From the IMG/VR virus record IMGVR_UViG_3300028583_002208: DNA of 64,000 bases; one strand, given 5' to 3'. Each line of letters starts with the position of its first letter. Position 1 is the first letter of the stretch. The notes beneath the pieces are model-generated. The model saw only the letters and a list, made by a program, of their open reading frames with translations, did no database searches and was not told where the DNA came from. Source of the DNA: a virus (lineage: Duplodnaviria > Heunggongvirae > Uroviricota > Caudoviricetes). Shown piece after piece: positions 15,810 to 62,298 of the stretch. The translations under genes and the position numbers were made by a program.

Positions 15810-16538
15810 TTATTCTCCTTCATTGTTTTGATCTTTTATTGCTAAAGCGTCTATGTGCTTTTCAAAATTATTAAGGTATTCATAAACCCTATCGTCTACA
15901 AGACCACGGTATCTTTTAGCCAACACTTTCGCTAATCTAACTTTCTCTTTTCTGTAAAGCTCATAACCCTCTTTTGGACAAGTTGTTCTCCCCAGTGTTT
16001 TATTCTTACCGTCTAGTTGGGCACAAGATACTATATATTTTCCACCTGACTTAGTGTACCCCTTCTGCCACGAAACCCCTGCATAACCAGATTTACTTGA
16101 CCTCCGTCTGAAAGTTAAAAAACTATTTATAACTATAGGGATGAATACACAAGTGTCTTCTGAATATACCTTACCTTCTTCCGATAAAATATCCTTGTCC
16201 AAAACCCAACCTTTGTTATTGAAACCTGTTTGTTGTCTACACCACTCCACAAAATAATTATAATCTTTGAAGTTATCTGATAAAGAAACTCCTGTATAAC
16301 AGAAGTCTCCTTTTCCCGTATGCTGGGATCTAACTCTGCTACACATATTAGTATGCAGACAGCCCTCTTTAGTCTGTAAGTTTCTACCACAAGAACCCTT
16401 ATAGACTTTATTATATTTACCATCTACGAAGGTTGCAGGTAACCTTTCTCTGTGATCACTTCTTATATTTTCCAAGAGATACCTCTCGTTCCTTAGCTTT
16501 AACAACTGTCTTACATAAACCACCACGAACAATGTCAT
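15810..16538 (-). CDS. AP2-domain endonuclease-like protein (HNH-AP2 homing-endonuclease type)
   Basis: 'SGYAGVSWQKGYTKSGGKYIVSCAQLDGKNKTLGRT...YELYRKEKVRLAKVL' is an AP2 DNA-binding domain. The N-terminal Cys/His-rich segment is compatible with HNH. It overlaps the 3' end of phoH. Confidence 0.5.
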   Translation of the reverse strand: MTLFVVVYVRQLLKLRNERYLLENIRSDHRERLPATFVDGKYNKVYKGSCGRNLQTKEGCLHTNMCSRVRSQHTGKGDFCYTGVSLSDNFKDYNYFVEWCRQQTGFNNKGWVLDKDILSEEGKVYSEDTCVFIPIVINSFLTFRRRSSKSGYAGVSWQKGYTKSGGKYIVSCAQLDGKNKTLGRTTCPKEGYELYRKEKVRLAKVLAKRYRGLVDDRVYEYLNNFEKHIDALAIKDQNNEGE

Positions 16539-17223
16539 CTGATGTAGCTCGAATAACCTCTACAAACTCTTCAAGTTCAGGGTTATTCTTAACAAATTCT
16601 ACCAACCACTGAATACCATTTTGACCTTTTATGTCGTTTTGGGTCGGATCACCAATACATATGAGGCATCCTCCTTCCGCGATCCTTGTCAACATAGTGT
16701 ACATCTCTTCTGGCTTAGTGTTCTGGCATTCTTCTAAAACCACTACTTGGTCAATACTACGTCCACGAATATACTCTAAGAGTGCAAATTGAATAGTACC
16801 ATTGTTCAAACTACTCTCATAAAAACCGTGACCGTATCTCTCTGAAATAACATCCACTAAAGGAAGTAAATATGGTTCATATTTCTCTCTTAAACCACCT
16901 TTAAGTAAGCCTACTGAAGAACCCATACCTACAGCGGGACGAGTTAGGTAACAAGTGTCGTAAATCCCCTTTTTAAGCCAGTCAGTAACTTCTGACATAG
17001 TTAAGTAACTTTTACCAACACCAGCGGGTGCATCAAATACAATACAAGACTTAGTCTGTAGTGCTTGAAGGAATTGTCTTTGCACATCATTCTTAGCCTG
17101 TACAGGAGGTTTTAGGTAAGTGTGATTTTCATCTCGAACGACTTTCCCTTTTTCCGATTTCTTTTCCCAACGTTCTTGAACAACTTTTTGTTTATTACGT
17201 TTACCTGAACGATTACGAGCCAT
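16456..17223 (-). CDS. phoH: PhoH-like P-loop ATPase
   Basis: 'IVFDAPAGVGKSYLT' P-loop, and the overall PhoH layout '...VVLEECQN...IGDPTQNDI'. Confidence 0.8.
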   Translation of the reverse strand: MARNRSGKRNKQKVVQERWEKKSEKGKVVRDENHTYLKPPVQAKNDVQRQFLQALQTKSCIVFDAPAGVGKSYLTMSEVTDWLKKGIYDTCYLTRPAVGMGSSVGLLKGGLREKYEPYLLPLVDVISERYGHGFYESSLNNGTIQFALLEYIRGRSIDQVVVLEECQNTKPEEMYTMLTRIAEGGCLICIGDPTQNDIKGQNGIQWLVEFVKNNPELEEFVEVIRATSDDIVRGGLCKTVVKAKEREVSLGKYKK

Positions 17224-17289: not shown

Positions 17290-17871
17290 CTAAAAGGGAA
17301 GATACTCTACTCTGTTTACAATTTGCCCATAAACAAAAGTTTCATCCTTCTCTCTACGCTCTGCCAATTCAACATAGTACACTTGCTGAAAACTATTCAA
17401 CCCATTAAAAATGTATCTCTCTGCTTCAAGTTCTCCTCTTCTTTTGCACAAAGCTGTATATGCACCAATAGATTTACTACCTAAGTATCCATCCACTTCT
17501 ATGTCTTTGTAATACTTCTGCTTACAATTGGATACATTCAGTAAACGTTGAAACCACTTTATAGGAGCACGATAACCTACATTAACACCAGAGTCCATCA
17601 TTTCTTTTGCTAAAGTTTCTGACACTTCTGCAACAAGGTTAAATTTAGGGGTAAGGTAATATTCGGTGACATATAAATCTTGTGCAAAGGTTATTGGTAA
17701 TTCTGACATATGTCCTTTGTAACCATTAGCTCTTGCCACCTTCTCCGTCACACCATATTTGGTTGCACCACCAGAATCATCCTTGTTATCAACATAACCT
17801 CCTTCCACATCAATAATATGGTCAACTATTTCCTGCACAAAATGGGGTGCATTTTTGTAACTATTCTTCAC
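17290..17871 (-). CDS. GH108 muramidase with PG_binding_3 domain (TtsA/endolysin-like)
   Basis: 'IIDVEGGYVDNKDDSGGATKYGVTEKVARANGY' matches the GH108 signature. Confidence 0.7.
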   Translation of the reverse strand: MKNSYKNAPHFVQEIVDHIIDVEGGYVDNKDDSGGATKYGVTEKVARANGYKGHMSELPITFAQDLYVTEYYLTPKFNLVAEVSETLAKEMMDSGVNVGYRAPIKWFQRLLNVSNCKQKYYKDIEVDGYLGSKSIGAYTALCKRRGELEAERYIFNGLNSFQQVYYVELAERREKDETFVYGQIVNRVEYLPF

Positions 17872-18601: not shown

Positions 18602-18943
18602 TTAACCTTTCTGTGGTAATGAAGCTTTTAAAGAAGCTTTCACCCCTTTAGAACAATTAAGCTCCTCGATAACAGTGTCCATATTTTCCAAAGTGTGATT
18701 ATACTTTTGGATGTTTTGGTCATACATTGTCAGGAGGTATTTAACTTGACCAACAACCTCATAAACGAAATCGTTTAAAGTATCCTGTAATTCTTGGTCA
18801 ACATTATCCAATGCCGAAACGTGTTCTAACATTTTGATAATGATTGCTTCTAGTTTGGCGTAATCTTCTTGGTAATTTGAGCCATTTGATTCTTGTGTCA
18901 TGGTTTCTCCTTTTATGAATATTTGTTGATTATAGAAGTACAA
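18602..18943 (-). CDS. hypothetical protein
   Basis: 113-aa ORF between nrdB and the DNA-binding ORF. Confidence 0.4.
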   Translation of the reverse strand: MYFYNQQIFIKGETMTQESNGSNYQEDYAKLEAIIIKMLEHVSALDNVDQELQDTLNDFVYEVVGQVKYLLTMYDQNIQKYNHTLENMDTVIEELNCSKGVKASLKASLPQKG

Positions 18944-20250
18944 TCACCTAAGTAGTATCCCTCTTGGGTAAATACTTGAGGTACTGTAGTTAATCCTTTG
19001 TTTATCAAACTTTGTTTAGCGTATTCTCTTTCTACATCAACCTCTGTTACATTGATCCCCTTATCTTTAAGGAATTGTTTAACCTTATCACAAAAAGGGC
19101 AAGACTCTTTTGTATAAACCACAACATCAGAGGGCAATGTGTTTTCCCTATTACCGAAGTCATAAATAATATCTTCGCTAGTATCATCAATAACAGAGTT
19201 TAAGCGGTAATTGTTCAAACTAACCTCTTGAGCTGACTGTTGATTAGAATCTATATCTAACCACTTATCCATCCAAGGTAAAGGGTTTTCCTCTACAACA
19301 TCATAAGGTTTAACCAATCCTAGCTTATTGTATACAGCATCCGTTCGGTATGTAACCCAATCCTTAAGGAGTCCTGATGTCAAACCAAGAACACTACGTC
19401 CTTCACTGAATATATACTCTGACCAAGAAACCTCTTGATGGTAGACGCTATCCACTAACTCTTGTACTTGAGGTTTAATCTTCTCAAAAGTAGCTTTCCA
19501 TTCTGATTCTTTAAACAGGATATCAATAATAGCTTCATCCATTTGAGTATGAATAGTCTCATCTACCATTATTTTCTGTACTAAACTTGCCACGCCCTCA
19601 AATAGGTCTCTTTCCGCTAAACTAAAAGTACATGCGAAGGAGGCCATAAATTCCATTGCTTCTAGACAGTATAGAGCTACTAAGCTTAAAAGTAGAGTTT
19701 CTCTTACTTCTTCTGAAGATACTGAGTTTTTATCCAAAGAGTATTTAGCACCAAGTATTTTTAACTTAGAAAAACTTTTAGCAATAACATCTGAACGATC
19801 AGTTATATTCTTATCGGACAGTATCTCGTTAAATATATCGTCAGGGTTAGAAATACATTGCCTAATTATTTCAGAGTACGTTAATGCATGGAGGGATTCG
19901 TTTTCGCTCCACTTTAGCATCATTTGACTCAGGTCACTATTGGAAATAAATGGTGCAAACAATGCAATTATAGATCTAGATGCAAGGCTATCCGCTTCGT
20001 ATTGAAAGGATAAGGTTTTTATCATAACATCGTAACTATTTTTATCACAACTTGCAAAATCTAACCTTGATTTCTCTAAGTCTATCTCATCTTCTGCCCA
20101 ATCTAAACTTTTAAGCTTTTTGAATAGTTTGAATAACTCTGGGTAAGGTCTGTTCATGGTATCATGTAAACCTAACCCCTCTCCCATAAATAAAGGGTAT
20201 TTTCCTGTTTTCCATCCTGTGTTAGAACGATTCAATACATTATCTATCAC
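18913..20250 (-). CDS. nrdB: Class I RNR small subunit NrdB with a C-terminal glutaredoxin (NrdH/Grx-like) domain fusion
   Basis: The N-terminal ~360 aa show an NrdB-like ferritin fold ('LFMGEGLGLHDTMNRPYPELFKLFKK...W.EDEID'). The C-terminal ~75 aa, 'VVVYTKESCPFCDKVKQFLKDKGINVTEVDV...TVPQVF', give a CPFC glutaredoxin motif. Confidence 0.8.
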   Translation of the reverse strand: MIDNVLNRSNTGWKTGKYPLFMGEGLGLHDTMNRPYPELFKLFKKLKSLDWAEDEIDLEKSRLDFASCDKNSYDVMIKTLSFQYEADSLASRSIIALFAPFISNSDLSQMMLKWSENESLHALTYSEIIRQCISNPDDIFNEILSDKNITDRSDVIAKSFSKLKILGAKYSLDKNSVSSEEVRETLLLSLVALYCLEAMEFMASFACTFSLAERDLFEGVASLVQKIMVDETIHTQMDEAIIDILFKESEWKATFEKIKPQVQELVDSVYHQEVSWSEYIFSEGRSVLGLTSGLLKDWVTYRTDAVYNKLGLVKPYDVVEENPLPWMDKWLDIDSNQQSAQEVSLNNYRLNSVIDDTSEDIIYDFGNRENTLPSDVVVYTKESCPFCDKVKQFLKDKGINVTEVDVEREYAKQSLINKGLTTVPQVFTQEGYYLGDCTSIINKYS

Positions 20251-20274
20251 TAATATGATTCCTCTTTAAATGAT

Positions 20275-20296
20275 AGGCTGTATTTTACTACAGCCT
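20275..20296. other. Stable hairpin in the nrdA-nrdB intergenic spacer
   Basis: aggctgta-ttttac-tacagcct (8-bp stem) between the nrdA stop (20303) and the nrdB start (20250). Possible processing or attenuation site. Confidence 0.35.
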
Positions 20297-20302
20297 TTAC
20301 AA

Positions 20303-21312
20303 TTACATGCGGCAACTTTCACAGTCGTCTTCTTCATCTTCTAAAATAGAAGTTGCTGCAACCGTGGCCTTAGTCTCATCTTCTTTGATACCACCTTTAC
20401 TATTCTGATAGTATAAACTTTTAAGCCCCATTTTAGTAGCGTAGAAGTAATCTTTCATCATTACAGTAAGAGGTACTTTTTCACCTTCATACTTACTGTA
20501 GTTTGTGTAAAGGTCACAACTAATACCTTGTCCATGAAACTTTTGGAAGATAGCATAACAATCTATAATATCCTTAGTAGGTACATTATAAGCAAGTTCA
20601 TAACTATTCTTAACTTCTTCCTTCTCAATATCAGGTGCTGCAAAAGTATTCACTGTACTACCAGAACGCTTAACAGTGTAAAATTCACGTATAGGGTATA
20701 AGCTGTTGGTAGTCTCGCTTGCTTGAGAGCTACTTTCAGCAGGAGGAGTTGCCTCTAGTACCGAGTTACGTATACCACCTTGCCTTATGATTCCCTTACG
20801 TAAACTTTCCCAATCAAATTTCAAACCTTGGCTATGTACATCATCTACGTTTTTATTGTACGTGTCAATAGGTAGCCAACCTTCAGGATACTTAGTCCTA
20901 TCTATTAAAGAACAGTTACCCTTTTCTTTTGCTAAACGTAAACTTGCACTGTGTAAGTAGAAGCTGTGCATTTCAGCCAAAGAGTGCATGTAATTCTTAC
21001 CCTCTAAGCTACTATAACTCAAACCTCTTACTGCCATATCATGTGCTAGATTGGTAATACCTATACCTACACTACGTCTACCTTTAGCAGTGTTCTCCAC
21101 TTGAGGGAAAGGATACTCCATCAAATCGATAACATTATCAACTGCTAGAAGAGAATAATAAGCTACATCTTCATATTCTTCTTCTGAAATTCTTCCTGCA
21201 ACTAAACAACTTAGGAAACATAAAGCAATTTCACCTGCCTCAACTCCTTTATTCTTATCATACATATCTACAACGTTTAAATAACCTTTAGTAGGTAAAA
21301 ATATTTCTTGAC
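20303..21312 (-). CDS. nrdA: Class Ia RNR large subunit NrdA, exon 2 (C-terminal half)
   Basis: Upstream of the annotated ATG the frame stays open and reads 'QEIFLPTKGYLNVVDMYDKNKGVEAGEIALCFLS...', aligning with E. coli NrdA 'LEIALPTKPLNDVNDENGEIALCTLS'. It ends with the KSLYYQN and C-terminal CxxC tail. Confidence 0.85.
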
Positions 21313-21566
21313 TATAAGATCCCCTATTTTAATAAGGGTATGGATCATATCATCATCCGTTCTGGATGTCGGGCGCTAATGTGGTTATTAAGTTCTCAAA
21401 CCCCACTGATCTCTGGACGTTCTCTATCCTTAGAGCTTCGCTGCTGATTGCCATCTACTAACTAAAACACACTCGCTTCTCAGCGATAATGCAAAGCCTA
21501 GTTAAGGTTTCCAGTCAATTCACCCAATTATTCAATACGTGTCCCCACGTAAGGCTGCGTCATTTC
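21313..21566 (-). mobile_element. Group I-type self-splicing intron (ORF-less, ~254 nt) in nrdA
   Basis: The exon-1 frame hits TGA 3 nt past the conserved 'SSNL'. Joining ...aatctgt | gtcaagaa... restores 'SSNLCQEIFLPTK' (the NLC-EI radical-site motif). P1 can form between exon 'cugu' and intron 'gcag' with a U-G pair at the junction. R-like 'cagagaucag' and S-like 'gauaugaucc' elements are present. Boundaries are good to +/-1 nt. Confidence 0.7.
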
Positions 21567-22833
21567 ACAGATTGCTACTATAGATTGTATCTTTAAAAGG
21601 AGTATGCAAATTCATTTCATCTAACCAAGTGTGGTATTTACGGCCTGTATCACCACGTTGAGTTAAGAATAGTTTTAATACTTCAAAAGAGTTAACAAAC
21701 CTCTTCTTTCCTTCACTCTTTTCATAAGATTGATAAGCTTTCTTAAACTCGTCATAGCCTTTAAAATGTGCTTCATATAATTCAGGAGAATCATAATAAG
21801 ATACCAACATCCAAGGTTCTTTTCTAGAAGCTTTTTCAGCTAATAGTTTTGTTGCTCCCATCGAATAATCAAGTCCACGTATACGCTTATCTTCTATCGT
21901 GGTAGGATGCTTCAATCGTAACAAGGTTTCTACTTCTGGGTCAAGTACTGTGTAATGTACTGTCGCACCACCACCTCTAACTTCCTGCTTAGTAGACTTA
22001 ACCGCCCCTTGTAAATAACGGTAGTAAGGTATCTTTCCTGTATGTTTATCGGGCTGAGATCTTATAGGGTCTTTAACAGAACGAGTAGTTAAAGTACAAC
22101 CGATACCAGAGGATGCATTAGTAAACTTATAAGCAGCATGTACTAAATTCTCAATAGAGTCTGCAGTATCTTCTGACTTAATTACACAACAGCTAGCAAA
22201 ACCTTTAAAAGAAGTTCTCAAACCTGCTAAGAAAGGTGTTGGCATATTGATCTTCAAGTCGCTTAAATATGTGTATAGCTTCTCAACATCTTCTAATCTA
22301 CGCTCATCAGGTTGTGTTTCCATCACCTTCATTGCAATGCCCATGAAAGCATATTGAGGTGTTTCACAAACTACACCATTTAGCTTCTTCGCATACTTAG
22401 TGCTTATTTGTTTTACTGTAGATAACTTATAATTCAAATCTTTGTCATTATCTAAAACACTATCAAGATAATCTAAGTCAGAGTCATCATAATCCATGTA
22501 CTCCCATACACCAGCAGATGTCATTTTATAATAGAAGTCTGGTAAAGATGGCCTCTCTTCGAAACCCCCGTGTACAGTTTTATACAAAGAACCTAAATAT
22601 AACCTAGCTGCCATATCTAAATGTTCAGGAGTTTTCTTATCAGAGCAAGCGTCAATTAATGCTTGTTGCAACTCTTGTGTTGAACACTTATCTTCTACTT
22701 TACGTAATGCATCAAAAACTAACCCTGACCAACAAATACCTATTGTTGAACCCCACTCTGCCATACGGTTCAATTTGTCAGGAGAAAACTCTACAACATC
22801 ACCATTACTTTTAGTAACATAGTTTATACTCAA
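21567..22833 (-). CDS. nrdA: Class Ia RNR large subunit NrdA, exon 1 (ATP-cone plus N-terminal catalytic half)
   Basis: 'VTKSNGDVVEFSPDKLNR' is an ATP-cone. '...RKYHTWLDEMNLHTPFKDTIYSSNL' aligns to E. coli '...RIYIQNVDHCNTHSPFDPAIAPVRQSNLC'. Confidence 0.85.
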
Positions 22834-23534: not shown

Positions 23535-24041
23535 TCATAATCTTCTCCAAACTTGAACACTTGCCTTCAAATCCCCCTCACTTACCTCCAAAGGTTCTCC
23601 TACTTTCTCAAACCCTGTTAAATCTGGTTTGAAATGTGTATCCGCTTCTGGGTAAGATTGTTCTACTGTTGTCAAGTGTACTTCTTGCACCAAAGGCCAC
23701 AACTGTTCATAAATGGTTGCCCCTCCTATTACCCAAACACCCCAAAAGTTGAAAATACTTACTTCGCTTTTCCAACACTTTTCAAAGTTTGCCAAAGGTA
23801 ATTTAACAATACCATCCACTTGTTCACCATAGCCAGTATTTGTAATAATATAATTTCTACGCTTAGGTAAACCTTTCGGGTAAAAGGGTAAACTTTGGTG
23901 CGTTTTATTTCCCATAAGGATAACACTACCATCAGAAGTAACCTTTTTAAAGTAAGCTAAATCTTTTGGAAGGTGCCATAGGAGAGAATTGTCCTTTCCT
24001 ATTTCACCATTGATCCCTGTTGCAAGGATTGCTTTAATCAT
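23535..24041 (-). CDS. frd: Dihydrofolate reductase
   Basis: 'MIKAILATGINGEIGKDNSLLWHLPKDLAYFKK', 'VIGGATIYEQLWP' and 'EADTHFKPD' are DHFR signatures, collinear with E. coli FolA. Confidence 0.85.
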   Translation of the reverse strand: MIKAILATGINGEIGKDNSLLWHLPKDLAYFKKVTSDGSVILMGNKTHQSLPFYPKGLPKRRNYIITNTGYGEQVDGIVKLPLANFEKCWKSEVSIFNFWGVWVIGGATIYEQLWPLVQEVHLTTVEQSYPEADTHFKPDLTGFEKVGEPLEVSEGDLKASVQVWRRL

Positions 24042-24563: not shown

Positions 24564-25415
24564 CTATTCACTAAATGGAAAACTAATCTTACCTAAATGT
24601 TCATAGTTTGTCAACGTGAATTTATCAGTATTTTCCAATTTCATAATATCTTCCCAAGATTGGATACTTTCACAAATCGTTAATTCAGGTTTGCATTCCA
24701 TAAAACCCCTTTTCATTTGTATTGTAAAGTTTTCTATTTGATCCTCGTAAATATGAGGTTGATTTATAACATGAGTCACCTTACCTGCTTTATTATCTGT
24801 AATACGTGCCATCAATTCTAACATAATCCAACACTCTTGTGTATTTGCAACCAAGCCAAGAGGTACATCGCACGAACGTTGAGTTGCCGTCATATGTAAT
24901 ACATCACCTAAAAGGTTAAACTGGATAGAGTGAAGACATGGGCGCAAGCAACCCTCATCAAATTGGTCAGGCTTCCAATAAGTTATAATCTCTCCTCGGT
25001 CATCTATACCAAAGCGAAGGTTATTATACACTTTATCAAATTGGTTCACCCCACCAAAGTTATGACCAAAGTAACCATATACCTTGCCCATATCATCCTC
25101 ACCTTTACGAGAAGGATTATTTAACCAAGATTTATTTAAGTTAGCATTAGCATCCCAGCTTTTAGTACCGAGTTTACGGAAAGCTGCAGCACTAGTTTTA
25201 CCTTGCCAATAGCCCAACACTTCGGCAACACCCAGTTTAAATGGTGCCTGTCGGGATGTTATAATCGGGAAACTTTCTGTACGTAGGTCATAGTTAAAAA
25301 TAACCGTTTCTCCAGTAAGACACTTCTTACCAGTACGTTCATTTGTTACCCAAACACCATTTTCCAACAAGTCTTTGCCTAGAGTGTTATATTGTCTATC
25401 TACACTGCTGATCAA
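24564..25415 (-). CDS. td: ThyA-family enzyme (thymidylate synthase, or possibly a pyrimidine hydroxymethylase)
   Basis: 'ERTGKKCLTGETVIFNYDL', 'LRPCLHSIQF' (catalytic Cys), 'QRSCDVPLGLVANTQ' and 'QPHIYEDQ' match ThyA core motifs. The DSRR phosphate-binding motif is replaced by 'DDRGEI'. Confidence 0.75.
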   Translation of the reverse strand: MISSVDRQYNTLGKDLLENGVWVTNERTGKKCLTGETVIFNYDLRTESFPIITSRQAPFKLGVAEVLGYWQGKTSAAAFRKLGTKSWDANANLNKSWLNNPSRKGEDDMGKVYGYFGHNFGGVNQFDKVYNNLRFGIDDRGEIITYWKPDQFDEGCLRPCLHSIQFNLLGDVLHMTATQRSCDVPLGLVANTQECWIMLELMARITDNKAGKVTHVINQPHIYEDQIENFTIQMKRGFMECKPELTICESIQSWEDIMKLENTDKFTLTNYEHLGKISFPFSE

Positions 25416-57331: not shown

Positions 57332-57406
57332 GCGAGATTAGTTTAATTGGTAAAATAGTAGCCTTCCAAGCTTCAGTCATGGGATCGTAACCCATATCTC
57401 GCTCCA
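57332..57406 (+). tRNA. tRNA-Gly (anticodon UCC), CCA encoded; slightly non-canonical
   Basis: Acceptor gcgagat/atctcgc (7 bp). D-arm gttt/aaat. Anticodon arm gtagc-ctTCCaa-gcttc with one U-U mismatch. T-arm atggg-atcgtaa-cccat. Discriminator U, then CCA. Confidence 0.6.
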
Positions 57407-59451: not shown

Positions 59452-60261
59452 ATGATCTGGAATAATATCACCTTTCCTGTCAAAGAAGAGTGGAAAGATA
59501 TCGAAGGTTACGAAGGTATTTATAAAGTTAGTAATTATGGCAGGGTGAAGAGTCTGTCCAGAGATATTCACTACCACAGGAACGGAAAAATGACTTCTAT
59601 CTTTAAGAAAGGAAGGTTACTTAAACCCAAGACAGACAAGGATGGTTATAAAGAGTTATGTATGACTTCCTCTGAAGGTATTAGGAAATACAAGAGAGTG
59701 CACCGTATCGTGGCAGAAGCTTTCTTAGAAGAAACTCACATAGATAACGCTGTGATAGACCACATAGATAATACCAAAGACAATAATATTTGGTACAATC
59801 TGCAATGGATGACTTCTACTCAGAATACTATAAAGTATTACGCAGAAGATTACAGTAAAAGTAGAACTTTAAGTTCCTTAACAAAAGAGGAGTTTGCTAG
59901 GATAGGTGAACTTTACAATAAAGGTTTACTTTACCCTGAGATTATAGATGAAATGGGTTTGACGGTAGAAAGTCCCTCCACTTTATGGGAAGTTCTATGT
60001 GGGAGAAGGTTGTCTAGCGTATCTGGTTTTAAAGAGGGAGATTTTAAAACAAGACCTCACCCTACTACGAAATTAACTGAAGATGATGTAGTACAAATAA
60101 TTAAAGAAAGAATTATAGATAAACAAAAGTTAAAAGTGTTGTCAGAGAAATGGGGTGTAGCTGAGTCCATGATAAGTAGATTTACTAAAGGTACTCGACA
60201 ACCTTCCGCTTATATTAAATTCAAAGAAAGGTATAATTATGACAAAGAAAAAGAAGAGTGA
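59452..60261 (+). CDS. HNH homing endonuclease with NUMOD4-type N-terminal module; free-standing, abutting terL exon 1
   Basis: 'IEGYEGIYKVSNYGRVKS' is NUMOD4. 'HRIVAEAF...IDHIDNTKDNNIWYNLQWMTSTQN' is the HNH core. The C-terminal region is HTH-like. Its 3' end overlaps the terL exon-1 start in another frame. Confidence 0.75.
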   Translation: MIWNNITFPVKEEWKDIEGYEGIYKVSNYGRVKSLSRDIHYHRNGKMTSIFKKGRLLKPKTDKDGYKELCMTSSEGIRKYKRVHRIVAEAFLEETHIDNAVIDHIDNTKDNNIWYNLQWMTSTQNTIKYYAEDYSKSRTLSSLTKEEFARIGELYNKGLLYPEIIDEMGLTVESPSTLWEVLCGRRLSSVSGFKEGDFKTRPHPTTKLTEDDVVQIIKERIIDKQKLKVLSEKWGVAESMISRFTKGTRQPSAYIKFKERYNYDKEKEE

Positions 60262-60346: not shown

Positions 60347-60592
60347 TAAAAATCCAGTGGTTCCACATTAAATAACCCTGCTAATTCGATGAAGGCTAAG
60401 TGTACTACATAAGCTAATATCGAGCCGAATGATTAAATTCATGGGTGTAGAGATCAATCGTGATGAGTGTAACGATGTAGGGGCCAAGTGGCTTCCAAAC
60501 GTAGGGCTATGTTATAACATAGAAGATATGATCCGACAACACAGGAAACTGTGGAAAGAGAGTAACGCCTCTAAAACTGATCCTGAAAAATG
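60347..60592 (+). mobile_element. Group I-type intron A in terL (ORF-less, ~246 nt), splitting the Walker A motif
   Basis: Exon 1 ends ...GGA, exon 2 begins (A)GSGKS. P1 forms between exon 'ggagcu' and intron 'gguucc' with a terminal U-G, and the intron ends in G (60592). R-like 'gagaucaa' and S-like 'aagauaugauccg' elements are present. Confidence 0.65.
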
Positions 60593-60928
60593 GCTGGTTC
60601 AGGAAAAAGTTATCTATTGCAAATGATCCCTTTAATGTTAATAGATGATCCCAATTCGGAAATGGTAATGTTCCGTAGAACTAATCCCCAGATAAAAGGT
60701 GCGGGTGGTATATTTAGCACAGGTTGCGGAATATACAATCAGCTCCCTCCTAATATAAGACCAAAGATTAAAACAGGTGACCTAGAAGTTATATTCCCTA
60801 CCAAAGACGAGAAAGGTAGGCGTAGTTATAATGGTGCCAAGATAAAATATCAACAAGCAGAAAATGTAGAACAAAGTAAACTAAATGCCCAAGGTTTGCA
60901 ATGGACTTTTGTTGGTATAGATGAGGGT
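60593..60928 (+). CDS. terL: TerL exon 2 (ATPase: Walker A second half to Walker B)
   Basis: '(A)GSGKSYLLQMIPLM...' completes the P-loop, and '...LQWTFVGIDEG' is Walker B. The frame then hits TAA at 60929. Confidence 0.8.
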
Positions 60929-61182
60929 TAATTGTAGCCCCTTAATGTAGGAATACATTTAGAAAATCCCGTGAATTCAGGGGAAGCCTCTAGTAGGTAA
61001 TCCTGAGCGAAGCTCGAAAGAGAACGTGCAACGACTATCCTGAAAAGGAGTACACAACAAGCTAATGGTTGTGGAAGCGCGGGACACCTAGAACAGGTGA
61101 TGATATAGTCTGAACTTCTATGGTGACATAGAGCAGCCATAATAGGCGGAAGATGACTTGCAAACATCTTTGAACACAATTG
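60929..61182 (+). mobile_element. Group I intron B in terL (ORF-less, ~254 nt), inserted just after Walker B
   Basis: Canonical group IA-type core: R element 'caacgacuauccug' and S element 'gaugauauagucug' (P7 GACUA/UAGUC). A U-G P1 forms between exon 'gggu' and intron 'gccc'. It ends in G (61182). Joining gives '...VGIDEG|TQFEWSQIEYF...'. Confidence 0.75.
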
Positions 61183-62298
61183 ACACAATTCGAATGGAGT
61201 CAGATAGAATATTTCATGTCTCGACTCAGGTCACAATCAAAACATTTCTCCCGTATGGTTATATCTTGTAACCCGTCACCCTCTCATGAGATTAAGAAGA
61301 TGATCTCATTCTACTTGACAGATGACGGATATCCTGACCCTAAAAAGGACGGTTTAGTTAGGTATTTCATACAAAGAGACGGTGAGTACATATGGGGAGA
61401 AACAAGGGAAGAATTAGGAACAAGGTTTGATATTCCTGAAAAAGATTGGGAAAACTTAATTCTATCTTTCAGCTTCGTGAGCGCAAATATTTATGATAAT
61501 CCTCCGATGATTGAGAGCAACCCAGCTTACCTCGGCTTCTTAGAAGGTTTGAATGAAATTGACAAAGCTCAACTATTACATGGTTGCTGGGCAGAATTTG
61601 CATTCGGAAGTAAATACTTTAAACGTGATTGGATAGATCACGTAGATAAAGTACCTACAGATGGTCTCACTGTTAGGGCATACGATTTCGGAGCATCTGA
61701 AAGAACCATGTCAAACAAGAACCCCGATCCAACAGTAAGTATAAAAATGCATAAAAGTAAAGATGGCTATTATACTTTAATGGGTGATTACCACGAAGAC
61801 TTCTATGACAAAGTGGATGATATTCAAGGGGCAATGTATCTCAGTTCTGGGGAAAGGGATAGAGTAATGTTAAAACAGGCTGCATTTGACGGTTCAGAAG
61901 TTTACCTTGTTGGTCCGCAAGATCCTGCTGCGGCTGGAAAAGCCCTTTGGAATCAACAAGCTAAGTACTTTGCAGAAGAAGGTTATATTTATAAAAAAGA
62001 CCCCATGCCTATAACAAAGAATAAACTTACCAAGTTCTTACCTTTTGCAACAAGTGCAGAGAATGGTTTGATACGTATAGTTAAGTCCACTTTTTCAGAG
62101 AACACTTATAATCATATAATGAAACAGTTGGAAAACTTTGATGGTGAAAGATCAACCAAAACCAAAAAGGATGACTTTGCAGATGCTATAGCTTCGGCTT
62201 ACAACTTCCTATCCAAAGAAAGAGTAATCCGCGCCTACAGCCTCCCAGACACCACTTCTCCAACAGCTTACACCTCTTACCGCAAGTCTATCCGATGA
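61183..62298 (+). CDS. terL: TerL exon 3 (ATPase C-motif plus RNase H-like nuclease domain)
   Basis: 'SRMVISCNPSPSHE' is the TerL coupling motif (ISTP-like). 'RAYDFGAS' and 'KDDFADAIASAYNF' carry the nuclease acidic residues. Confidence 0.8.
   Translation, partial: TQFEWSQIEYFMSRLRSQSKHFSRMVISCNPSPSHEIKKMISFYLTDDGYPDPKKDGLVRYFIQRDGEYIWGETREELGTRFDIPEKDWENLILSFSFVSANIYDNPPMIESNPAYLGFLEGLNEIDKAQLLHGCWAEFAFGSKYFKRDWIDHVDKVPTDGLTVRAYDFGASERTMSNKNPDPTVSIKMHKSKDGYYTLMGDYHEDFYDKVDDIQGAMYLSSGERDRVMLKQAAFDGSEVYLVGPQDPAAAGKALWNQQAKYFAEEGYIYKKDPMPITKNKLTKFLPFATSAENGLIRIVKSTFSENTYNHIMKQLENFDGERSTKTKKDDFADAIASAYNFLSKERVIRAYSLPDTTSPTAYTSYRKSIR

Follow-up and report, generated by a model that had tools for sequence, protein, structure and literature searches.

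The window analysed here, the whole 64,000 nt stretch of the tailed phage record IMGVR_UViG_3300028583_002208 (Caudoviricetes), encodes a ribonucleotide reductase (RNR) small subunit, NrdB, that carries a glutaredoxin (Grx) at its C-terminal end. One polypeptide is confirmed to contain both a class Ia NrdB and a C-terminal dithiol glutaredoxin, with matches far beyond chance. The fused gene, nrdB::grx, is a single unbroken open reading frame (ORF) on the minus strand (18913..20250, including the stop codon); it encodes 445 aa, begins at a GTG start codon and has an AGAGGA Shine-Dalgarno sequence 8 nt upstream, and its interval 18916..19143 encodes residues 370-445. The best explanation, to which we assign a joint probability of about 0.75, is that the Grx would serve as a tethered, glutathione-recycled reductant for a CESC cysteine pair of the large subunit, NrdA, and that the fusion would have arisen from an adjacent, in-frame nrdB-grx pair and could revert to it, by the loss or gain of one stop codon. 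The fusion itself is real, is ordinary for its phage lineage and has been known since 2018. All coordinates given for nrdA, nrdB::grx and their parts refer to the minus strand.

Domain composition of the fused protein

Both parts of the protein score above the thresholds of their Pfam models. In particular, residues 35-323 match PF00268 (Ribonuc_red_sm) with an E-value of 5.2e-36 and 124.9 bits (cut-off of 33.6), and residues 376-428 match PF00462 (Glutaredoxin) with an E-value of 1.5e-15 and 57.5 bits, well above the gathering score of 22.9. The top NCBIfam models are class Ia NrdB for the body of the ORF and GrxC/Grx3-type glutaredoxins for its C-terminal end, where the E-values are 2e-13 for GlrX-dom, 4.9e-13 for TIGR02181 (GRX_bact) and 3e-6 for NrdH (TIGR02194). 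Further, PHROG 86, the RNR small subunit family, covers residues 4-444, which indicates that the phage family profile itself spans the Grx part.

The NrdB core (residues 1-339; 19234..20250) was delimited as a ferritin-like class Ia beta subunit by its alignment to E. coli R2 and by AlphaFold2, whose predicted local distance difference test (pLDDT) scores are mostly 80-98 in this region. E. coli R2 structures match the protein with an E-value of 7e-48, at a constant offset of 3 residues across the N-terminal half. The metal ligands D87, E118, H121, E197, E231 and H234 correspond to E. coli D84, E115, H118, E204, E238 and H241, the radical tyrosine Y125 corresponds to Y122, and the pathway residues W51 and Y348 correspond to W48 and Y356; all of these are invariant in 30 fused homologues, whose identities extend down to 43%. 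Because the E. coli catalytic residues are matched and invariant across these homologues, the NrdB part is predicted to be a complete class Ia beta subunit of the diiron-tyrosyl type.

The glutaredoxin domain occupies residues 376-445 (18916..19125) and contains K381, the CPFC redox-active site (C384 to C387; 19090..19101), the TVPQVF motif that forms the cis-proline loop of the thioredoxin fold (residues 422-427, with T422-V-P424; 18970..18987) and a GDCTS motif (G435 to S439; 18934..18948) in place of the usual GG-x-D-D. Of the 30 fused homologues, 28 have a CP[YF]C active site (CPYC in 16 and CPFC in 12), and K381, C384, P385, C387, P424, Q425, G435 and D436 are invariant in all 30, a set that includes both cysteines and the cis-proline. 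Among solved structures, E. coli glutaredoxin 3 (1FOV; E-value of 4e-10) matches the C-terminal part best. An AlphaFold2 model of residues 367-445, calculated from an alignment without the split Grx sequences described below, has a mean pLDDT of 91.8 and the beta-alpha-beta-alpha-beta-beta-alpha order of a glutaredoxin; in a Foldseek comparison with the PDB, its top 50 matches are all glutaredoxins or Grx domains with a probability of 1.00, several of them bound to glutathione (GSH). A preliminary description of the window had proposed an NrdB with an extra C-terminal domain carrying CPFC and TVPQVF, and had named the absence of a Grx/Trx fold as the result that would speak against it. The Pfam, 1FOV, AlphaFold2 and Foldseek results bear out that proposal: the C-terminal end is a glutaredoxin both by sequence and by fold. 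Its sequence classifies it as a GrxC/Grx3-like dithiol (class I) glutaredoxin, for which GSH-dependent reductase activity is predicted.

The same comparisons bear on a second possible identity of the domain, an NrdH-like redoxin that still serves NrdA and is recycled by host thioredoxin reductase. NrdH-redoxins are recognised by a CVQC active site and a WSGFRP motif. The change of the GG-x-DD glutathione motif to GDCTS would suit such a redoxin, as would the weak NrdH matches (the TIGR02194 E-value of 3e-6, and 9e-4 for E. coli NrdH in phmmer), but the GrxC/Grx3 matches are much better (E-values of 5e-13 for TIGR02181 and 4e-10 for 1FOV), the active site is CP[FY]C and not CVQC, and no WSGFRP occurs in the sequence. 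Moreover, two traits typical of GSH-binding glutaredoxins are conserved, the TVP loop and a lysine (K381) ahead of the active site, and several GSH-bound Grx structures are among the top Foldseek matches. An NrdH-like redoxin is therefore quite unlikely.

Position of the junction

The preliminary description pointed out that function would depend on where the added domain joins NrdB relative to its NrdA-binding C-terminal peptide, and the alignments place it after the complete tail, via a short linker. The C-terminal tail of the NrdB part (residues 340-365, AQEVSLNNYRLNSVIDDTSEDIIYDF; 19156..19233) contains Y348 of the radical-transfer pathway and the NrdA-binding end ...DIIYDF. Residue 365 pairs with position 389 of 391 in N. 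gonorrhoeae NrdB (7MDI_E; ...DIIYDF versus ...DDLGDF), and the tail also aligns to the last residues of E. coli NrdB. Since unfused relatives end exactly at the position of DF365 (...EIFDI, ...LDFDF and ...VLDF), the whole NrdA-binding tail appears to be kept in the fused protein, and the Grx is placed by these alignments after an intact predicted NrdA-binding tail, 10 residues past DF365.

The intervening linker (residues 366-375, GNRENTLPSD; 19126..19155) is 8-14 aa long in the 30 fused homologues and variable except for its invariant first residue, G366; N347, Y348, D364 and F365 are likewise invariant. The frequency of the majority residue is 0.79 in the NrdB core, 0.73 in the tail, 0.39 in the linker and 0.62 in the Grx. 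AlphaFold2 modelled both the core and the Grx of the full-length protein with confidence and gave pLDDT values below 50 for residues 339-369, which suggests that the tail and linker are flexible.

This geometry raises the question of a regulatory function, in which the redox state or the bulk of the Grx would modulate the affinity between the alpha and beta subunits and thereby let the thiol status of the cell influence holoenzyme assembly. The junction is just 10 residues from the binding determinant, and D364, F365 and G366 are invariant, as such a coupling could call for; the linker, however, is unconserved apart from G366, and relatives with a free Grx are viable. The proposal is purely speculative, and we consider it very improbable.

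Conservation of the fused gene

The window derives from a relative of the Pseudoalteromonas phages HM1 and J2-1 (genus Qingdaovirus), with 92.6% nucleotide identity over 6 kb, and the HM1 and J2-1 orthologues of the fused protein are also 445 aa long and 97% identical to it. Full-length matches at 60-80% identity also come from Vibrio phages, namely ICP1, PWH3a-P1 and about 88 additional records, and the fused ORF is present in at least 91 phage genome records. Among the best 120 clusters from a collection of 5.8 billion proteins, 32 contain both Pfam domains; the fused clusters are 442-462 aa long, with a single exception of 763 aa. Overall, the fused architecture occurs with its own linker and no stop codon in about 30 metagenomic clusters and in ICP1, PWH3a-P1 and eugene 12A10, at identities of 55-76%.

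The fused gene is under purifying selection, as shown by a comparison with J2-1 in which the NrdB core codons have 79 synonymous and 6 non-synonymous differences and the Grx codons 20 synonymous and 2 non-synonymous differences. The GC content at third codon positions (GC3) of the Grx part is 0.26, similar to that of nrdA and nrdB.

These data also decide whether nrdB and grx are in truth two genes that only look fused in this particular sequence, owing to a frameshift from sequencing or assembly or to a missing stop codon. Relatives do have nrdB and grx in the same frame, split by a stop and one to three codons, so that an error of one base could fuse them. However, HM1 and J2-1 share the 445-aa architecture at 97% identity, and it recurs in ICP1, PWH3a-P1, eugene 12A10 and about 30 clusters; because it recurs in frame across independent clusters and phage genomes, a frameshift merger is excluded, and the probability that the fusion is an artefact is negligible. 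The merger had been named beforehand as a possible refutation, and conservation rules it out. Related phages do carry the same extension, among them HM1, J2-1, ICP1, PWH3a-P1 and many Vibrio phages, which makes the initial portrayal of the fusion as rare and unusual an overstatement: it is fixed across a broad myovirus lineage of Vibrio, Pseudoalteromonas, Aliivibrio and Shewanella phages, and examples are listed in Table S1 of PMC6187632.

Split relatives and the origin of the fusion

The closest NrdB proteins without a Grx domain (P0032 and P0033) are 63% identical to the fused protein and are encoded on three short metagenomic contigs (L002, L003 and L004). On these contigs, a grx gene of 74-75 aa starts 9 nt past the nrdB stop codon, and the junction reads in one frame as ...FDFNTKR-stop-ENNMTDKLKVYSKPDCKPC, with the stop followed by three codons and then the grx ATG. 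The split NrdBs have four extra residues past the DF end, and the split Grx has a CKPC active site. Since nrdB and grx share one frame here, a single stop codon separates the split from the fused form. Similarly, in the Vequintavirus FFH2, nrdB follows nrdA and is divided from an in-frame grx ATG by a stop and one codon; nrdD lies beyond grx. The vequintaviruses rV5 and FFH2 and the three contigs thus have the gene order, the frame and a homologous Grx in common with the window, and differ from it in that a stop and a new ATG leave the Grx free.

Fusions are also found outside the first lineage. The protein P0050 and its counterpart in Aliivibrio phage HNL01 represent a second fused lineage, placed apart from the first and with an NrdB of about 42% identity, and the Vibrio phages F102 and VPMCC14 contain further C-terminal fusions with the same gene order. 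The split relatives and the FFH2 arrangement indicate that the nrdB-grx linkage is old and RNR-specific, and by sequence comparison the association between grx and the nrdB 3′ end appears older and wider than the fusion.

A neighbour-joining tree of the NrdB core, a method based on distances only, recovered the fused clade together with the split pair in 100 of 100 bootstrap replicates. In none of the replicates did the split pair fall outside the fused group; the basal position went to P0031 in 84 of 100, and in 16 of 100 P0031 was sister to the pair. This topology favours either a secondary fission or repeated fusion, and does not settle the direction. The origin contained in our best explanation, from an adjacent in-frame gene pair through changes in one stop codon, would be compatible with passage in both directions.

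Proposed electron path and its alternatives

The gene nrdA lies directly upstream of nrdB::grx, across a spacer of 52 nt (20251..20302). About 30 residues follow the YYQN motif of NrdA and end in CESCRM, and a CESC[RK]M end is also found in J2-1 and ICP1; the CESC cysteine pair (20312..20323) is the presumed substrate of the fused Grx. The NrdA tail has a CxxC motif in the fused phages and in FFH2 and a Cx4C motif in the split contig L002, a sample too small for a conclusion.

In the proposed mechanism, the beta tail would dock on NrdA as in other class Ia enzymes, bringing the tethered Grx to the surface of the alpha subunit. At the end of each turnover, the active-site disulfide would be carried outward on the flexible NrdA C-terminus (about 30 residues, with its CESCRM end), and the adjacent Grx (C384 and C387) would reduce it there at a high local concentration. 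The oxidised Grx would then be recycled with host glutathione, glutathione reductase and NADPH. Reduction of NrdA by the Grx and glutathione as the source of electrons are inferences that draw on what is generally known of RNRs and on the N-terminally fused Grx of Facklamia ignava (PMC6187632); continued binding of NrdA by the internal tail is likewise a prediction.

Several observations weigh against this mechanism. The GG-x-D-D motif that contacts glutathione is replaced by GDCTS nearly invariantly across the fused clade, which leaves some doubt about glutathione dependence; GDGTK stands at this position in the split relatives. The tail that is a free C-terminus at the DF position in unfused enzymes is here internal, and a domain appended at the DF end might alter NrdA binding. 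How the Grx sits relative to the NrdB core is not predicted with confidence in the full-length AlphaFold2 model. Both domains miss the equivalog cut-offs of NCBIfam; in particular, the class Ia NrdB equivalog NF006576 scores 207.6 bits against a cut-off of 346, and by the NCBI threshold the NrdB of the window is classed as a divergent phage member rather than an equivalog of the bacterial protein. Finally, the searched literature offers neither biochemistry nor a structure of a C-terminal NrdB-Grx fusion.

A different function would be that of a general phage thiol-disulfide oxidoreductase, or of a protein that maintains the NrdB cofactor, whose fusion would only ensure co-expression while NrdA is reduced mainly by host redoxins. 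This is favoured by the status of the Grx as the sole recognisable redoxin in the J2-1 genome. A search with phmmer --max across the window and the complete J2-1 genome matched only the nrdB::grx ORF; its targets were all stop-to-stop ORFs of at least 45 aa, and its queries were E. coli TrxA, T4 NrdC, E. coli NrdH and Grx1, together with the Grx domains of the window and of the split relatives. The J2-1 annotation lists no other redoxin gene. Phage redoxins such as T4 NrdC are, moreover, free proteins. On the other side, grx is tightly and specifically tied to the 3′ end of nrdB in distant phage groups, whether fused or split, and a CPxC dithiol glutaredoxin with an active-site proline is not of the type that usually ligates Fe-S clusters. 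The F. ignava fusion also provides a precedent for direct RNR reduction (PMC6187632). A general or cofactor-maintaining role is accordingly unlikely, and reduction of the NrdA tail by the tethered Grx is the reading we prefer.

If the Grx does reduce NrdA, its placement may still matter. The domain lies 10 residues behind the NrdA-docking peptide, which is internal and capped by an invariant glycine. We tentatively raise the possibility, though we doubt it, that C-terminal placement is not equivalent to the N-terminal fusion of F. ignava: the Grx would reach NrdA only when the beta tail docks, which would couple re-reduction, and possibly alpha-beta affinity, to holoenzyme assembly.

The nrdA gene and its neighbourhood

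The nrdA gene is interrupted by a group I intron (21312..21565) at the codon of the catalytic cysteine, located by Rfam RF00028 and by restoration of the reading frame. Exon 1 (21566..22833) encodes residues 1-423 and the first two bases of the C424 codon and ends in ...IYSSNL; exon 2 (20303..21311, including the stop codon) encodes the flexible C-terminal tail and ends in ...EDEEDDCESCRM. The Rfam match (21321..21605) has 60.1 bits against a gathering score of 50 and an E-value of 9.8e-13. The intron is about 254 nt long, contains no ORF and separates SSNL from CQEI, which corresponds to N437-L438-C439 of E. coli. Its boundaries were set by frame restoration and are possibly off by 1-2 nt; the frame-restored 5′ splice site follows a G, not the usual U, and is likewise approximate.

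Joining 21566..22833 to 20303..21311 yields a spliced NrdA of 758 aa with the junction ...SSNLCQEI..., whose residues 5-736 align with E. coli NrdA (E-value of 4e-135) and which has equivalents of C225, N437, C439, E441, C462 and the YY pair. Its first ~90 residues correspond in the alignment to the ATP-cone region of the E. coli protein; Pfam gave no ATP-cone match in the window NrdA at an E-value of 0.01 or below.

Mobile elements are found at the same locus in related phages. The NrdA of ICP1 (L010 4025..5008) contains an intein between ...IYSSNL and C..., at the same codon as the group I intron of the window, so that orthologous nrdA genes harbour two different kinds of selfish element at one site. 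The annotation of J2-1 lists the two halves of nrdA as separate coding sequences; in J2-1, nrdA and nrdB are also separated by an HNH endonuclease gene (L001 9302..9823), in place of the 52-nt spacer of the window.

Upstream of nrdA are genes for dihydrofolate reductase (DHFR; 23535..24041, minus strand) and thymidylate synthase (24564..25415, minus strand), which complete a cluster for the synthesis of deoxyribonucleoside triphosphates (dNTPs). Downstream of nrdB::grx are a GH108 endolysin (17290..17871) and PhoH (16456..17223), as in ICP1.

Other features of the window

A second group I intron is present on the plus strand (60919..61133; Rfam, 97.1 bits), between an ORF that ends in ...VGIDEG (60590..60931) and an ORF that matches positions 109-213 of Terminase_6N followed by Terminase_6C (61180..62298); the large terminase gene appears to be split by the intron. 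An ORF for a NUMOD4/HNH_3 endonuclease (59452..60261) lies just upstream of the split terminase, and the window contains one tRNA gene (57332..57403, plus strand; Rfam RF00005, 57.4 bits).

Relation to known RNR-glutaredoxin fusions

Rozman Grinberg et al. (2018) searched RefSeq for combinations of RNR and Grx, and reported Grx-NrdB fusions in Francisella and 24 viruses (PMC6187632). Their Fig. 1 shows a 'vibrio-phage operon', and their Table S1 lists ICP1, PWH3a-P1, eugene 12A10, helene 12B3 and Shewanella phage 1/4 as Glutaredoxin:NrdB of subclass NrdBg. Of these, the proteins of the Vibrio phages ICP1 (ORF204), PWH3a-P1, eugene 12A10 and helene 12B3 are orthologues of the window protein, 65-68% identical to it over the full length, and the architecture was therefore already catalogued. 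The orthologues of HM1, J2-1 and the Vibrio and Shewanella phages share with the window protein the C-terminal Grx, the FDFG junction and the CP[FY]C site, and these phages share its nrdA-nrdB::grx ... endolysin-phoH gene order; the catalogued phage proteins differ from it only at the level of sequence.

The position of the Grx at residues 376-445 identifies the protein as the phage NrdBg type and separates it from the two bacterial types. The NrdB of F. ignava is the only biochemically characterised Grx::NrdB fusion, and its fused Grx is an efficient GSH-dependent reductant of the RNR by both dithiol and monothiol routes (PMC6187632). In that protein, however, the Grx is N-terminal and followed by an ATP cone, whereas the Grx of the window protein is C-terminal, behind the NrdA-binding tail; moreover, F. 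ignava NrdB belongs to subclass NrdBi and has a Mn(III)/Mn(IV) cofactor and no tyrosyl radical, whereas the NrdB of the window is predicted to be of the diiron-tyrosyl type. The Francisella-type glutaredoxin/NrdB (NF009398, PRK12759) is also one chain, but with an N-terminal Grx and the NrdB at positions 105-389 of 410; the window protein matches NF009398 with its NrdB part only (65 bits, against a cut-off of 649). Further, the top Foldseek matches include Prx5-Grx of Haemophilus influenzae (1NM3) and thioredoxin-glutathione reductase (TGR), in which a Grx is covalently attached to an enzyme that exchanges electrons with it; their partner enzymes are unrelated to NrdB, and the analogy is one of principle only.

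In literature searches on C-terminal NrdB-Grx fusions and on the RNR biochemistry of ICP1, only PMC6187632 catalogues the fusion, which goes unmentioned in PMC3653736 and PMC6715854. The searched literature, the text of PMC6187632 included, was not found to describe the C-terminal orientation, the junction after an intact tail or the in-frame split relatives; these features are increments to a known system and not a new kind of system. Near-identical genes in GenBank are named plainly NrdB, the Grx domain having been missed in annotation.

For the phage, the fusion implies that dNTP synthesis is served by a phage-borne module for electron delivery, joined to the RNR itself; this fits the cluster of thymidylate synthase, DHFR and nrdA genes and the apparent absence of another phage redoxin. 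For RNR enzymology, it raises the questions of whether an internal beta tail can bind NrdA and whether tethering at the C-terminus is kinetically superior to the split form. The apparent switching of this lineage between tethered and free Grx offers natural matched pairs with which the contribution of tethering could be tested.

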